64,000 bases of DNA from the NCBI RefSeq assembly GCF_963921235.1, contig NC_086108.1:90522001-90586000 (forward strand). Reading direction: 5' to 3'. Shown piece after piece: positions 1-9,639 of the stretch. The DNA comes from Mobula hypostoma. Lineage: Eukaryota. Every line of letters begins with the position of its first letter. Position 1 is the stretch's first letter. The notes below the pieces were generated by a model. It ran no database searches, was not told the DNA's origin, and saw only the letters and a list, made by a program, of their open reading frames with translations. Both the position numbers and the translations under genes were made by a program.

Positions 1-1182
1 GACTGCTAACATAATTAATTGTATTATTTATTATAATGTAAGATTTAATTCATCTTTTAAATTTAATTCTATAATAGTTAATAATGATGCCCCATTGAAA
101 GCAGTAAATTTGAGTCTGACACTGCCATCACCTGAGGGTGAGAATAGAATTGGACAAATTGGCGATATCTTTAATAGCCATCGTCTCTTATATCCATCGT
201 CTCTTATATCCATAAGATCATAAGACGTATGAGCAGAGTTAGGCCATTTAGCCCTTTGAATCTTCTCCACCATTCAGTCATAAAAGCTGATATATTTTCT
301 CTCTCAACCCTACTCTTCTGCCTTCTCCCCATAACCTTTGATACCTTACTAATCAAGAACCTATCAACCTCCATTTTAAATATACCGAATGACCTGGCCT
401 CCACAGCCATGTGTGGCAATGAGTTCCACAGATTCACCGTGCTTTGGCTAAAGAAATTCCCCCTCATATCTATTCTAAAGGAACATTCTTCGACTGTGGG
501 GCTGTGCCCTCTGGTCCTAGACTCCCCCGCTATTGGAAATGACTTGCTCATGTCCACTCTATCTAGGACTTTCAATATGTGGTAGGCTTTAGTGAGCAAA
601 GCCCTCATTCTCTAAACTTCAGCAATACAGACCAAGAGCCATTAACCCTTTCATTCTGATACATTAAGACTTTCATTCCTGGGATCAATCTTCTTAAACT
701 TCTCTGGATCTGCTCCAGTACCAGCAAATCCTTCCTTGGATATAGGGTCCAAACCTGCTCACAATATTCCCAAGTGAGGACTGACCAATGCCGAATAAAG
801 CCACAGCAATCCATCCTTGCTTTTATTATCTAGTCCTCTCAAAATGAACGTCAATATTGCTTTTTCTTTCCTTACCACAGACTCAACTTGCAAGTTAACC
901 TTTAGGGAATCCTGCACTAGGACTCCCAAATCCCTTTACACCTCCAATTTCTGAACTCGTTCTCCATTTAGAATATAGACTATGCCTTTATTCCTCCTTT
1001 CAAAGTACATGACCATACACTTCCCTATGCCGATTTTCCATTTGCCACTTCTTGACCCGTTCTCCTAATATGTCTAAGTCCTTCTGCAGACTTTCTGCTT
1101 CCTTGCCCCTCCACCTATCTTTGCATCTTTGGAAACATAGCCTCAAAGCCAACAGTTCCGTTATTCAGGTCATTAAAATATA

Positions 1183-1972
1183 CAGTGGATATTGGTTAAT
1201 TGGGACACATCAGGAACAATTTCATTTTGGCCCAATTAGCCAATGTTTCATGGAAAATATTTAAAAGATATTTAAGTGACCAACTACCATTTAACTGAGA
1301 AACAAATTATGTATTTAAGTGAAATACAGAACAAATTAAAACACTACCAATCCTACTAAATTACTGTAAATCTGTATTAGTTCCTAATAGTTATCAACAG
1401 AGTTCATCCAGTGTGCGCTGCCATTTTTTTGTGATTGACTGTAAATGAATAAAATCAGCGCAGACTCCTAATCAGATAATAGACTGCCTTCATACAATGC
1501 TTTTGACAACTGCATATCTCAAGTCTTCATTTTCATTGTAACCTTCAAGATGATTGTGGATACCTTCAAATTATTCATATTTCCTAGCTTGTTGAAGTAA
1601 TGAAATTGTTTCATTTCCTCTCCTGCTTGTTTCTGCCATCTCCAAGCCCGAAATCCCGGTGAGCAGAACATTTCATAATTTTCTTACTGCTTAATTATCA
1701 CCCACTATCAGTGACAAAAATCACTGCTCTTTGAACAGAAACACACGCTATTTAAAAACTGTTTGCTCTAAGCAAGGTGTAGAGTCTAATGGCCATACAA
1801 GTGCTCACGACTAATACCACTTAGAAACTATTTGTCAACAGTTTCCTGTCCCAATTAAGTGGCATAGTGTCCCAAAAGAACAAAGGGAATTCTTTTTTGT
1901 TCTTTAAAAGAATTGTCTCAAATAAGTAGCTGCCCTGGTTAACAGATAGCCCGATTTAATTGGAATCCACTG
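1183..1972 (-). mobile_element. Tigger/pogo-type non-autonomous DNA transposon, copy 1
   Basis: TA|CAGTGGAT..TTAATTGGG ... CCCGATTTAATTGGAATCCACTG|TA gives imperfect TIRs and a TA duplication, and the CR1 resumes seamlessly on both sides. The minus-strand remnant AVIFVTDS..SSKKIMKCSAH resembles the C-terminal part of Tigger transposases. A paralog lies at 39635-40435. Confidence 0.85.
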
Positions 1973-2040
1973 TAATGTGAAAAGCAGCAGATCCGACACC
2001 TAACCCTGCTGAACGCCATTAGCAGCCAAACAGCAAAGAC

Positions 2041-2170
2041 CCTGATGAAGGGTCTCAGCCTGAAATGTCGACTGTACTCTTTTCCGTAGATGCTGCCTGG
2101 CCTGCTGAGTTCCTCCAGCATTTTGTGTGTGTTTCTGGATTTCCAGCATCTGCAGATTTTCTTTTGTTTG
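2041..2170 (+). mobile_element. Short Penelope-like (PLE) terminal-repeat insertion
   Basis: It is the same sequence as the 3' terminus of the RT/GIY-YIG-bearing PLE at 40472-41670 and is inserted inside the CR1. Confidence 0.85.
2042..2074 (+). ncRNA. Minimal type I hammerhead ribozyme core (degenerate)
   Basis: CTGATGA-A-GGGT-CTCA-GCCT-GAA-ATGT-C-GACTG. Both conserved boxes are intact, stem II forms, and the helix III palindrome ACGT has decayed at its CpG. Confidence 0.7.
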
Positions 2171-2290
2171 TGATAAGACCTGCTTTATTCTCTCTCTTTG
2201 CCTCATGCCAGTCAGACAATTTTCTATCATGATATTTCCTGTAATATCATGGGCTCTAATATTATTTAGCAACCTCATCTGCAGCACCTT

Positions 2291-2588
2291 CTACGTCATC
2301 ATCATTATGTGCCATGTTGTATGATGTAGGTGATCATGTTCTTTGACCATGATTTTTCTAGGCAAATTTTTTTACACAAGGTTGCCTGCCTGGCATCAGG
2401 GCTCACATAACAGGACATGTAATATGGACCAGTTGCTCATACGACCACCCCCTGCCATGGCTTCACATGACACTGATCGAGGGGGCGAAGCAGGTGCTAC
2501 ACCTTGTCCAAGGATGACCTACAGTCTAGCAGTGGGACGAAGCACCTGATGCCTCCTTTGGTAGAGACGTATTTCCACCCCGCTACCC
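2291..2588 (-). mobile_element. Short non-autonomous retroposon with RTE-type 3' end and (GAT)n tail
   Basis: The minus strand ends CATGATCACCTACATCATACAACATGGCACATAATGATGATG. It is flanked by CACCTT (2285-2290 and 2589-2594) and interrupts the CR1. Confidence 0.6.
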
Positions 2589-3881
2589 CACCTTTTCTAA
2601 AGCTTTCTGAAATTCCAAGTAAAGAACATCCACAGACTCTAATTTGTCTATCCTATCTGTTATTTTCCCAAATAATTCGAACAGATTGATCTGATTGATA
2701 AGGAAATCATGCTGACTTCGGTCTATTTTATCATGTGCCAAAAGTGCCCCAAAACCTCATCCTTAATAATGGACTTCAACACTTTCTCAACCACTGACGT
2801 CAAGCTAGCGCCAATAATATCCTGTCCTTTGTCTCCCTCCCTTCTTAAAGAGTGGAGTGACATTTGCAATTCTCCAGTCCTTTGGAACCATTATACAATC
2901 TAGTGGTTCTTCAACGTTCACTATTGCAGCCGCCACAATCTCTTCAGCTACCTCTCTCAGAACCCTGGGGTATGGTCCATCTGTTCCAGGTGACTTACTT
3001 ACTTTCAAACCGTTCAGCTTCCCAACCAGCTTTTCCTTATTAATGGCAACTACACGCACTTATGCCCCCTGACACTCTTGAATTTTTGGTGTACTGCTGG
3101 TGTCTTACACAGTGTAGATCCGATATAGAATACTTATTAAATTCATCTGTAATTCTTTGTCCCCTTTTACTACCTCAGCAGAGTCATTTTCCAGTGGTCC
3201 AATGTCTATTCTCACCCTTTTACTCTTTATGTAACTGAGAAACATTTTATATCCCTTTATGTTATTGGCTAGCTTTTCTTTATATTTCACCTTTTCTCTT
3301 TTTAATGCTTTTTTAGTTTCCTTCTGTTTGTTTTTAAAAGCTTCCCAATCATCAAACTTCCCAGTAATTTGTGCTATATGTCCACTGTGTAGCATGCTGT
3401 CTTTGCTATGCTGCCTTTGACTTCCTGTGTCAGCCATAGTTGCCTCGTCCTCCTCTTACTTCTCCTTTGGGATGTATCTATCTTGCACTTCCAAATTGCT
3501 CCCAAAAACTCCAGCCATTGATGATGATGCCGCTGTGTCTGCTAGTGTCTCCCTCTCAAACTGTAAGGTGAATTTTACAATATTATGATCACTACCTCCT
3601 AAGGCTTACACTTTCATAAGCTCCCTAATCAAATCTTGTTCATTACACAACATCTAATCCAGAATTGTCATTTCTCCAGTGGGCTCAACAACAAGCTGCT
3701 CTAAAAAGCATCTCAAAGACATGCTACTAATTCCCAATCTACCTGCATATTTAAATCCCCATGACCATGATAACATTGCATTTTTTACATACCTTTTCTC
3801 TCTCCTGTTGTAATTTGTACCCCAGATCCTGGCTACAGTTCAGTGGCCTGTATATAACTCTCATCAATGTCTTTTACCCTT

Positions 3882-4022: not shown

Positions 4023-4878
4023 TGTCTTTTTACCCTTAGAGTTCCTTTATTCTACCCACAAGGATTCTACATCTTCCTGTCCTTTGTCACCTCTTTCTAA
4101 GGATTGGATTTAATTTTTTACCAACAGAGCCACCCCAGCTCTCTGCCTACCTGCCTGTTCTTTCAACACAATGTGTATCCTTGGACGTTAAGGTCCCAAT
4201 GGTGATTTTCTTTCAGCCACAACTCAGTGACATCGTCACGCTTGCCAATTTCTAGCTACTTATCGACCTTAATCCATATGCAGCATGCATTCAAATATAA
4301 CGCCTTCAGTCCTGTATTCACCACCTTATTCTCAACTTGTCTCCATGTTGCCTGATGTTTAATTATTCCACTTTTCTAAACTTTCCATCTTATTCTTTAT
4401 TTTGGAAATTTTATTAACCACTCCTGCACTCTCCTCTTTTACTTTATCCTTACTTTCCCAAGCTGTTGAACTCCCCCCTCCCGTGCCACACCGAACTATA
4501 CTCTTTAGTTTAAAGCTCTATCCATTGCTGTCATTATACAATTTGCCAGGACCCTGATCCCAGCATGGTTCAAGTGAAGCCCATCCCATGAGAACAATTC
4601 CTTCCTTCCCTTACACTGGTGTCAATGTCCATGAGTTCAAACAACTTCTCCCAAACTTCTCCCGCACATTTAACTCTCTGATCTTATTAACATTCAGCTA
4701 CAACACATCACCTGATCCTGCATCCCTACTTTATTTATTTAGTTGTAATTTAGCATTATTTAAAATTTAAGTAATAAAAAAACATGGTGGATATCAGGCA
4801 GCTTATAAACCAGATTCATTTTGTGCTACCATGTATGAAATTTATTGCCACTCCTGCTTCACCAGTATATTTCCAGAC

Positions 4879-4959
4879 TAGGGGTTTCCAAACTTTTTTT
4901 TGCCATGGATCCTTACCATTGACTGAGGGGTCCATGGCCCCCAAACTTGGGAACCCCTG
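4879..4959 (+). mobile_element. 81-bp hAT (Charlie-like) MITE
   Basis: TIRs are TAGGGGTTTCCAA / TTGGGAACCCCTG, with an 8-bp TSD TTCCAGAC (4871-4878) / TTCTAGAC (4960-4967). Confidence 0.85.
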
Positions 4960-5062
4960 TTCTAGACTATTTGTGATGTTCAGGAGCTTATTCCAATATC
5001 TCTATTGTAAATTTCACTGCTGCACAGCAGAAACTGGATATTGTCTTAGTTTTTTGAAAAAA

Positions 5063-5450
5063 AATGAGAGGATGAGAGGTGACTTGATAGAGGTGTACAA
5101 GATAATGAGAGGCATTGATTGTGTGGATAGTCAGAGGCTTTTTCCTAGGGCTGAAATGGCCAGCACGAGAAGGCATAGTTTTAAGGTGCTTGGAAGTAGG
5201 TACAGAGGAGATGTCAGGGGTAAGTTTTTTACGCAGAGTGGTGAGTGCGTGGAATAGGCTGCTGGCAACAGTGGCGGAGGTGGAAACGATAGGGTCTTTT
5301 AAGTAACTCCTGGATGGCTACATAGAGCTTAGTAAAATAGAGTGCTATGGGTAAAGCCTAGGTAGTTCTAAGGTAGGGACATGTTCGGCACAGCTTTGTG
5401 GGCTGAAGAGCCTGTAATGTGCTGTATGTTTTCTATGTTTCTATGTTTCT
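5063..5450 (+). mobile_element. 5'-truncated CR1 LINE 3' fragment
   Basis: Encodes RMRGDLIEVYKIMRGID..LFPRAEM..RGDVRGKFFTQ and ends in the tail TTCTATGTTTCTATGTTTCT. Confidence 0.9.
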
Positions 5451-6790: not shown

Positions 6791-7694
6791 AAACAGATAG
6801 TAAGCTGGAGCAGAAGCTGATATTATACAGTCCCACATGCCTGCTTCTTTTCTTCTTATATTCATTGCTAACAGTGGGGAGTGGTGACGACTCAGATGGA
6901 CTAGTATCTGATCTTCTTTCAGTGGAGATTCAGACACCTAATAACCTGGTCAGGTTCTCAAAATTGAAATCCTATTTTCTGTTTTATATTTTTGTTAAAT
7001 TCATTCTCTTGGCAAGTTTATGAGCATATCCTATATATTTTTGTTTCAAATGATCTTCAGTTCTTTCTTGTTGTTCTACATTTAGTTTTAAGGTGCTCAA
7101 ATTCTTTGAAGTCTGTGCAAAAGATGTCAATTAACTACTTCCTCTCTTTACTGTTTACATTAAAATTCTATAACTTTTCTTTACTTGTATTTTACAATTT
7201 GAGTTATCCATGATGGAGTTATTTTCCTTCTTTTTATTAAATATGCTCCTCCTATCAAGTATTAAATTCACTTAAAATTAGACATCCAATATTCCTTAAG
7301 TGTATGTTGTAGTTGTTATTCATATCTTTAATTTGCTAGATGTTACTTGTACAGAAAAAGCAATACCAAAAAATTGCAGAATATAATACAATAATGAATT
7401 AAGAAACCGAATTGATTTGTTTTATATACCATATCAGGTTTACACAGTTTTCAGTGATTCATTCCTGTCAAAAGGGGTAGGAAAGACTATCAAAAGCGAG
7501 AGATTAAAATAACTTAGCGTCCTCAATTGATGAAACTTGATTACGACCAAATTTACACAAATACACAGTGAGCTTAGATTTGAGACCAAAAAATGAACAT
7601 CTCTCCTCATGAATGTGCATATTGCATTCCCTTTGACCCCTACCAAATTATGAAATTTTTGGTTGTGACTGGCCAAACTAAACCTTCCAACATA

Positions 7695-8330
7695 CACAAG
7701 GGGAGACAGTGCCACCCTCAGTGACGTGGTTGATGTCAGGCATACTGGAGCCTGCTTGTGACTGGAACATGGCTGTTGACCTTGACCAAAGGCTAATATT
7801 TCCTCTGGAGATAGCTACTACCACCCTTAGAACAGATTTGGTCTGAAGACTGTAGTAATCTCAGAGCTCAGGGAAAATGCAGTCTGGGAGGTGTATGAAC
7901 AGAAACGTGTGAGATACGCTGAGCTGGCCACAGATGCTAAGCAGCATGGATGGAAGGTGCAGATTTTCCCAGTAGAGGTTGGCTGCAGAGGATTTGTGGC
8001 TACTTCCATGGTCAGATTACTGAAGAGGTTGGGAGTCCGAAGCCAGGGCCAGCAGCAAGCTATAAAAGAACTCTCGGAGGCAGCCGAGTGAAGCAGCCAC
8101 TGGCGATGGATGAAGAGGAGTGATGGCAGCTGGGCCCTAAGATCACCCATGGGTGGCCAGGTGTGAAGTGGGGGAACCTGGACTCTGGGTTGCACTGTTG
8201 AGACCTCTAGAGATGTAGTGGACTTAAACTGATGAACTGACGAAACATCTAAGGGGGAGGGGGGTGCCCACCTGATGACCCCTGGGAAGCATCTGGCACC
8301 CACCTCAAGATCTCTATGCTATGACCTGAG
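7695..8330 (+). mobile_element. Hero-like (R2 group, restriction-like endonuclease) non-LTR retrotransposon 3' fragment with 3' UTR
   Basis: From 7739 it reads GILEPACDWNMAVDLDQRLIFPLEIATTTLRTDLV, then KTVVISEL..YEQKRVRYAELATDAKQHGWKVQIFPVEVGCRGFV..ELSEAAE*SSHWRWMKR. This is the PD..E..K-type C-terminus, with a stop and a deletion. Confidence 0.85.
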
Positions 8331-9639
8331 TTAGGATCTGCTTATCAAAGCTAAACATCTAGTCCTATGAGCTCCAACTGTAACATATGACAATATTCCA
8401 AAATTAGTTGTGGAAATCTCAAAATATTGCCTTATTGTTCATACTTTTCTAATATGACTAGTTGATTAGCCATAAGATATTACATCTTCCTTCTCATGAG
8501 AGTTACAGTTCTATTATGTGGAACACTTAATCATCACTGCCTCTATTTGTTTCACCAAAGTACAAGTTGTTCTGATCATTCAATCCCTTCTTTCACAAAT
8601 AACTTCCACAGAAGTAGAGAGGGTCAAACCTTCGGGGTATTGTCAACACCTGCTGATAAAAGTTCTCTGCAATGATAGAACCATCCAGTTGCTAACAGGG
8701 TTGAACATATGTTTTAGAATTGCTTAACTTATCAGCCATGGAACACAATCTTTTAACATGGTGCAGTATGAGGGAGATGCAATTGTGAATTAGAAGTGAA
8801 ATAATGATCCCAGTTTGAGACTCAGTCTTTCAGTCAGAAGATAGCAATATGTTTAAGAAAATAATAGTTTGAGGAATTGTTTATGCTTGCATAAAAAAGG
8901 AACATGCTAGAAACTTAAACATGGATCCAGATTTTCAGCAAGCTGTATTGGGAAATCTGAAGTGAATTTATACACATTTATGTGTGAGCTTCATTAAAAC
9001 TCTGATTTCTATGCAAATGAAGGAGGTTTACTTAATGGAGTGATTTTTTTTATTTTCTTCATGGGAATGAGCTGTATACTGAGCTTGTCTTTGTTAAGTG
9101 GGTGATGAAAGGCGGTTGTGTTCTTTCCATAAGGGAGTACTTTGCATTGCTGAACTTTTCAGTGTTATAGTTTAAATCATTAAAATGGATTATGCGTCGG
9201 AAGTAGAAGAAAATAAAAAGGTTGATGTGTTTCTTGTAATTCTTATCACTGTGAGAGCTCATGATGACTTGGATAATTCTACTGAGGATGCTAAACTTTT
9301 ACTGAACCTTAAATGCCCTCTGGTTTACTCAATGTACTGAATTTTGAATGATTGTACCCTCTGTCTGAAAATAACGAGGGGTCTTCTGTAATTGTGAACA
9401 ATTTGCAACTCCTCTTTTTATGTTTCTGACTGCGGGGGGGGCTCTTTCCTCAAGTTCTTATACATATGAAACTTCAGGCAAGTTTAATTTAAGGCTCTGA
9501 CTGCTTTCTTCCTGTGATCTTTTTTTAAAAGGACTTTTTTCCAAAAATTGTCAAATTTAGAATTTCCAGTGTCTATCACTGATCCTATTCCTAATCAATA
9601 ATTTTGATCAGCATTAACCATTTCTTACTATAGCATTTG

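Follow-up and report, generated by a model that had tools for sequence, protein, structure and literature searches.

We describe an RNA fold in the tail of an animal LINE that encodes a restriction-like endonuclease (RLE), and it is nearly certain that this fold is built on a conserved hammerhead core. The work departs from a window, i.e., the whole stretch of DNA analysed, which comprises 64,000 nucleotides of Mobula hypostoma (contig NC_086108.1, positions 90,522,001 to 90,586,000 of the forward strand). A sequence-only reading of this window had proposed a permuted hammerhead-like core in the 3' UTR of a retrotransposon copy. The proposal is partly supported: a conserved and covarying hammerhead-like core with a non-classical order of strands is present in the tail of the RLE LINE.

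The element copy in the window

The window contains a 5'-truncated and decayed copy of an RLE-type LINE (family A; 7693..8384 on the plus strand, as are all features of the copy given below). Following the sequence-only reading, we provisionally call the element Hero-like. The borders of the copy are based on BLAST to 29 other family A copies (77-84% identity), whose matches mostly begin at 7693-7707 and stop at 8346-8384. A broken ORF remnant with the PD..E..K restriction-like endonuclease region extends over 7697..8145, as seen from translations and alignment, and the stop codon of family A aligns with 8143-8145. The element is an RLE-type non-LTR retrotransposon with a single ORF, which comprises a reverse transcriptase (RVT_1 domain with E 2.4e-13 in a full-length family B copy), a CCHC knuckle and the PD..E..K endonuclease, the latter two being read from translations of element copies. 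Family B resides in the same genome, has about 53% protein identity to family A, keeps the boxes of the motif and shows a unit length of 3884 nt (~3.9 kb). The genome harbours at least four such related families.

Insertions have a fixed 3' end, which carries a terminal stem-loop (8345..8384 according to the alignments) that is common to families A and B and has lost 4 nt in the window copy. We infer its role: it is likely the start site of reverse transcription. The stem-loop is near-identical between the two families despite their ~53% protein identity, and its loop repeats the GAAAC box of block G (see below). Tandem repeats were not found within 7000-9000 of the window. Fragments of another decayed LINE lie at 178-611 and 4778-5317; judged from their translations, they presumably represent the ORF tail of a CR1/L2-like element.

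In Eckert et al. 2023, the hammerhead is split into blocks S, G and C, and the order S-G-C was validated in vitro (PMC10085705). In the window copy, block S (8212..8217) consists of the 5' strand of helix III, U16.1 (8216) and H17 (A8217), with the predicted cut after 8217. It is followed by the 5' strand of helix I (8218..8223), the 3' strand of helix II (8238..8241, ending in C11.1), block G with GAAA and the 3' strand of helix III (8242..8249), and finally the 3' strand of helix I with CUGAUGA (8266..8278), which is block C without its helix II strand. The elements on which the sequence-only reading was built are all found in the sequence: 8211-8216 is complementary to 8245-8250, GUA occupies 8215-8217, 8218-8223 pairs in 5 of 6 positions with 8266-8271, and CUGAUGA occurs both at 8272-8278 and at 8229-8235. 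The second CUGAUGA, taken earlier for a local duplication, stems from an 8-nt insertion (private duplication region 8229..8241) that is absent in 29/29 other aligned copies. The mismatch in helix I is likewise private decay, namely a G-to-A change at 8222, where 28/29 other copies have G. Helix III holds as a pairing with the exception of its proposed sixth pair, A8211-T8250; this pair falls within the k-turn pattern described below, and helix III therefore comprises 4 bp in family A.

Further strands lie upstream of block S. The 5' strand of helix P0 is a G run (8168..8173), and its partner (8279..8282) directly follows CUGAUGA; 8170-8173 gives 4/4 pairs and 8168-8171 gives 3/4. Hairpin P1 (8172..8196) is placed between P0 and helix II. 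Its basal stem is damaged in the window copy, which differs at 8173 and 8175 from 28-29/29 sister copies. The 5' strand of helix II (8197..8200, G8197 being equivalent to G10.1) pairs with 8238-8241. This contradicts the earlier statement that no canonical helix II forms, the 5' strand being located outside the region considered at that time. A pairing of 8279-8283 with 8252-8256 had been offered instead; it fails, since the G run at 8253-8255 is absent in 22-25/29 other copies, and the C run after CUGAUGA pairs upstream in P0. The 5' strand of P4 (8202..8207, partner 8260-8265) carries a private mismatch at 8203. Next to it, the non-bulged strand of a k-turn-like GA/AG motif (8209..8211) is partially kept, and the bulged k-turn strand, which precedes the 3' strand of P4 (both within 8250..8265), has decayed by expansion of the G run. 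The window copy is a dead fragment of 690 nt with an intact core and with damage in P1, P4, helix I and the k-turn; on these grounds it would probably cut poorly or not at all.

Two other readings of this region were rejected. A classical type III hammerhead via the GAAG just after CUGAUGA is not kept in family B or in distant families, and the same applies to a reading via the GAAAC box of the terminal loop.

Conservation and covariation of the fold

Within this genome, a search pattern for the S-G-C order yields 100 matches, while the reversed pattern yields 0. For the search beyond it, loci were chosen solely by alignment of the endonuclease protein. This gave 80 loci from metagenomes, out of 132 confirmed there, and 2 from genome contigs; 70 tails were left after dropping 12 of these 82 loci with less than 150 nt of tail. 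Of the 70 protein-selected tails, 43 contain the strict core together with helices I and III of 3 bp or more, compared to 0/70 reverse complements, 1/65 coding stretches and 2/1400 shuffles. Because of these tail counts and the 100 versus 0 matches in the genome, the core is more than chance. A profile derived from the family alignment recovers 61/70 tails and none on the minus strand.

Some protein-selected tails are free of the motif (L097, L103, L126, L151, L155, L162 and L164); these copies may have lost their 3' part by deletion, or they may belong to lineages that lack the ribozyme. In the tail of L142, which was missed by the profile, the motif is recognised by eye with A-U in place of G-C at 16.2-15.2 (AUA triplet), a compensatory change at an otherwise invariant pair. 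Short contigs of this animal LINE were found in two prokaryotic genome assemblies (L171 and L172) and probably represent host contamination. In viral contigs, a protein-based scan found no relatives, and 23 matches of the box pattern were discarded as chance; they have at most 2 bp of helix I and are unlike LINE tails.

For structural comparison we used 28 non-redundant families, 26 from public contigs plus families A and B of this genome, with a median amino acid identity of 49% (range 36-84%); L170, which has a deletion and belongs to the same family as L137, was excluded. The strands follow the order P0-5', hairpin P1, helix II-5', P4-5', III-5', UH, the cut, I-5', II-3', GAAA, III-3', P4-3', I-3', CUGANGA and P0-3'. 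The boxes are kept and helices I and III covary across these families, where core letters and both helices (at least 3 bp) were required by the descriptor and are thus partly built into the selection. Helix II is formed by the strand before GAAA and a strand 20-25 nt upstream of the cut, each of its pairs being kept in 27-28/28 families, and the first pair (10.1-11.1) is G-C in 23/28. The partner expected for a canonical helix II, i.e., the base after A9 pairing with the base before GAAA, is found in 3/28 only; the base after A9 starts P0 instead. The first four pairs of P0 are kept in 24-27/28 families, and the helix reaches 8-14 bp in many of them. The stretch from P0 to helix II is taken up by hairpin P1, in most cases without a base left over. 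At H17, which the descriptor left free, U occurs in 11 families, C in 9, A in 8 and G in 0. On the protein tree this position changes 13 times yet never to G, and N7 changes 12 times. Four of the five helices between distant strands (P0, II, P4 and III) bridge the cut.

In the k-turn consensus, a 3-nt bulge precedes tandem G.A and A.G pairs. Between helix III and P4, this pattern is seen in 21/28 families at bulge length 3, compared to 6, 1, 0, 0 and 3 families at lengths 0, 1, 2, 4 and 5, respectively, and as a sequence pattern it would qualify as a k-turn. L123, L133, L168 and L131 keep the ribozyme fold with a plain bulge at this place and no GA/AG pattern. The loops of P1 are GACG/GAUG tetraloops in 8/28 families and contain a 6-nt palindrome in 10/28 (e.g., L100, L110, L111, L105 and L092). 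Both kinds resemble retroviral kissing loops, and the P1 loops may hint at RNA dimerisation.

The pairing holds in an alignment that is blind to structure. In a MAFFT alignment of the 28 rows, 92.4% of the cells pair, compared to 66.0% after shuffling and 36-42% in slid registers. The same alignment holds 126 double changes versus 36 in shuffles (0/500); the number of pairs with a double change, one of five measures, is 13 versus 11.3 and does not exceed the shuffles (86/500). When counted on the protein tree, double changes on the same branch exceed the 99th percentile of the null for helix I in 4/5, for helix II in 3/3 and for helix III in 2/3, and weakly support P4 (2/5), P0 (1/6) and P1 (1/4). 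With the registers of II, P4, P0 and P1 chosen for best pairing, own strands are fully paired in 27/28 (II), 22/28 (P4) and 25/28 (P0) families, whereas cross-family chimeras under the same register search reach 32%, 14% and 51%. The core helices are therefore well supported; P4 is supported moderately, and P0 and P1 mainly by length and position. Plain folding recovers the nested helices P1, P0, P4 and III in 21, 17, 13 and 13 of the 28 families, and helices I and II in 2 and 3, which is expected because these are pseudoknots.

With regard to classification, the motif shares with the hammerhead a core in register with helices I and III and a helix II that closes on C11.1, and it deviates in the link from A9 to N10.1, which is neither direct nor made by 1-2 bases. 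With type SGC it shares the S-G-C order and a helix that bridges stems I and II, and its block C is not intact. With helix II-5' upstream, P0 and P1 in the gap, P4 and the k-turn pattern, the RNA has type-SGC wiring, the free ends of which are joined via the k-turn pattern while the chain is reopened between A9 and G10.1. The motif would work like type SGC, as a differently opened form of it. That its order is unlike hammerhead types I-III, which are three-way junctions free of pseudoknots, as the sequence-only reading had stated for the order, agrees with the pseudoknotted fold and with the lack of an Rfam hammerhead match within 7500-9000 of the window (E up to 10) and in 10 loci (E up to 1). 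Rfam scans miss the motif because of the break in the catalytic core.

Predicted cleavage and the template of reverse transcription

Active elements probably cleave themselves. The pattern of invariance follows hammerhead chemistry down to 36% amino acid identity, with N7 free, H17 never G and G10.1-C11.1 favoured (23/28), and GUA and AUA are natural hammerhead triplets. Type-SGC ribozymes with S-G-C wiring cleave in vitro, at slow rates of 0.007-0.19 per min (PMC10085705), and hammerheads of a viroid and of Penelope elements accept one additional base between A9 and G10.1 (PMC1636495, PMC3705267, PMC4209133). Two whole helices at this place go far beyond the 1-2 tolerated bases (cf. PMC10085705), and no precedent for them was found in the papers covered.

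The break of block C at A9 would also suit a fold that is not catalytic, i.e., a hammerhead-derived scaffold that binds the element protein or a k-turn-binding host protein, or that dimerises the RNA via the P1 loop. Such a scaffold is in line with the k-turn pattern in 21/28 families, with P1 loops that are often self-complementary, and with the lack of a genomic trace of cleavage. We consider it improbable, given that conservation obeys the catalytic rules of the hammerhead at N7, H17 and G10.1-C11.1.

Copies of the element end ~150-165 nt past the predicted cut, at the shared stem-loop, and a pattern search of the genome gave 0 copies that end at the cut. Simple 3'-end processing, as proposed in the sequence-only reading, is therefore unsupported. 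A site that makes the 3' end of the template RNA, or else a mere chance match, would be suggested by the location in the 3' UTR and by the ease with which short boxes arise, e.g., in the viral contigs; with copies running on downstream and with the poor helix I of the viral matches, so unlike LINE tails, either is barely conceivable. A pile-up of copies at the cut was not seen. In the 820 copies of family B the pattern matched 3 times, and two of these matches represent truncations located 2-3 nt before the cut; control anchors gave raw counts of 0 and 3 matches (1 truncation).

For the analysis of junctions, 30 of 42 matches to a pattern wholly within the 5' UTR were retrieved. The element's own tail is located directly upstream of the 5' UTR in 25/30 copies by BLAST and in 4 more by eye. 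These upstream tail fragments measure 22 to at least 1485 nt; 15/25 cross the cut, and none starts there. The junction of tail and 5' UTR is base-precise in most family B copies, and the N-terminus of a next unit was found downstream in 6/53 metagenome loci. It follows that the 5' end of these elements is not fixed, and that the RNA they are copied from runs without a break through both the unit junction and the cut. A conserved word ~15-20 nt after the unit junction was observed in the families of this genome as well as in L091, L098, L119, L121 and L128.

Both ends are present in 14 of 23 insertions, and they share 18 non-majority variants versus 5.6 when permuted (0/600), with 12 of the 18 coming from two insertions. 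At site -69 both ends agree in 12/12 comparable insertions, 3 of them with the minor allele; at two other diagnostic sites the ends disagree in 1 and 2 of 14. Within the stretches retrieved, none of the 23 insertions has two complete units. The remaining 9/23 junction-bearing copies end inside the unit (L256, L257, L259, L265, L267, L269, L272, L274 and L181); L259, for instance, covers unit positions 368 to 3880, which are continued by positions 1 to 784. They could be permuted insertions or later deletions. Target-site duplications above background were not found in the 23 insertions, and the nine copies are therefore indistinguishable from later deletions and carry no weight in the argument.

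Template jumping is known for the R2 reverse transcriptase. On this precedent, tandems might arise on linear RNA when the enzyme jumps from a 5' end to the 3' end of another RNA, either at the unit junction or across a nick at the cut; the cut halves would stay paired, so that a jump across the nick would mimic a circle. We hold this for very improbable in view of junctions that are base-precise in most family B copies and present in ~29/30 copies, and of the agreement of both ends at site -69 (12/12, 3 with the minor allele).

Precise head-to-tail junctions fit a circle and an uncut tandem linear RNA equally. In the latter case, the ribozyme would be active, but the template would be a read-through RNA that is linear, tandem and uncut, on which reverse transcription starts internally at the terminal stem-loop; cleavage would serve turnover, release from host transcripts or translation. 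This is possible, though rather unlikely. A Penelope element provides a precedent, with internal initiation, hammerhead cleavage that is unneeded for insertion in vitro, uncut RNA as the main substrate and no RNA-seq reads at the cut (PMC11167929). The 15/25 upstream fragments that cross the cut with none starting there, their extension up to nearly a whole unit (L259), and the slow rates of type SGC (0.007-0.19 per min, PMC10085705) point in the same direction. A linear template, however, loses upstream length in each generation and needs long source arrays, where 0/23 insertions have two complete units within the stretches retrieved, and the four cut-bridging helices are left unexplained.

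The best explanation, to which we give roughly an even chance, is a ribozyme that cuts after the equivalent of A8217 and an RNA circle, formed by re-ligation, as the template; the use of such a circle in reverse transcription is, taken for itself, about evenly balanced as well. A read-through transcript of a 1.x-unit insertion would carry two ribozymes, and cleavage by both would release the 3.9-kb unit. The ends of the unit would re-anneal because four helices (P0, II, P4 and III) span the cut, and they would then be ligated by the ribozyme or by a host RtcB-type ligase. Target-primed reverse transcription by the element protein would then begin inside the unit, at the terminal stem-loop that lies ~150-165 nt beyond the cut, and would go round the circle, at times more than once. 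A circular intermediate is a proposal in the case of Penelope elements (PMC4209133), and circles of retrozymes have been demonstrated (PMC7229834). The most far-reaching picture, a widespread autonomous animal LINE clade with an opened block C, a k-turn brace, a cut-and-rejoin switch, no true ends and a 3.9-kb coding circle, possibly as a dimer kissing via P1, is tentative and somewhat short of an even chance.

Comparison with known systems

In the papers covered by our literature search, neither a hammerhead in Hero elements nor a split block C was found, and none reported a hammerhead in the tail of an RLE LINE; this agrees with the remark of the sequence-only reading on the R2 group. Dozens of natural, covarying versions of about 100 nt make the claims of a ribozyme and of a circle directly testable at the bench.

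R2 elements, which now serve as tools for gene insertion, are relatives of the RLE LINE described here. As with their 5' HDV-like ribozyme (PMC13580325, PMC7650587), self-cleavage of the motif would release an RLE LINE from the longer transcript produced by read-through. The R2 ribozyme belongs to another class and fixes a linear 5' end, whereas the Hero-like LINE has no fixed 5' end and its copies run through the site.

Penelope-like elements have in common with our LINE a retroelement ribozyme, partial head-to-tail tandems, a fixed internal start of reverse transcription, a tolerated extra base at 9/10.1 and a proposed circular intermediate (PMC4209133, PMC11167929). They differ by carrying type I or minimal hammerheads in GIY-YIG elements, as opposed to a doubly pseudoknotted form in an RT-RLE LINE. 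Animal non-LTR retrozymes likewise occur as tandem copies with one hammerhead per unit, and their circles form after double cleavage, in vitro mainly by RtcB (PMC7229834; bioRxiv 10.64898/2026.07.22.740005). Their units are non-coding, 170-400 nt long and equipped with type I ribozymes, and their circles have been shown; the LINE unit of 3.9 kb encodes its own protein, and its circle is a proposal. To date, a circular mode is likewise a proposal in Penelope elements, and the small non-coding retrozymes alone have been shown to use it. If the circle proves true, an RLE LINE moves as protein-coding RNA in circular form and is primed internally.

The closest relative is type SGC (HRIMA-1 and variants), which was reported from metatranscriptomes, with no instance in the genome of a known organism (PMC10085705). 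Both forms agree in the S-G-C order, in all core letters, in a short linker between the 5' strand of helix I and the 3' strand of helix II, and in an extra helix that connects the strand following II-5' with the one preceding I-3', i.e., our P4 and the stem I-II interaction helix of Eckert et al. In type SGC, helix II-5' directly follows CUGAnGA; in the LINE motif it is placed upstream of the cut, P0 and P1 lie between A9 and G10.1, and the k-turn pattern joins III to P4. Type SGC originates from metatranscriptomes, the LINE motif from animal genomes. Hence, the "undescribed topology" of the sequence-only reading stands in part: the S-G-C order is known already, being described and experimentally validated, while three features appear to be new, namely the break between A9 and G10.1 with its two inserted helices, the k-turn pattern, and the presence of such a motif in LINEs of eukaryotes. 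Eckert et al. assumed CUGAnGA and its helix II strand to be inseparable (PMC10085705), and the core would tolerate precisely the break that the authors of this permutation scheme assumed impossible. The LINE motif would extend the non-circularly permuted hammerheads from unknown metatranscriptome RNAs into the genomes of animals.
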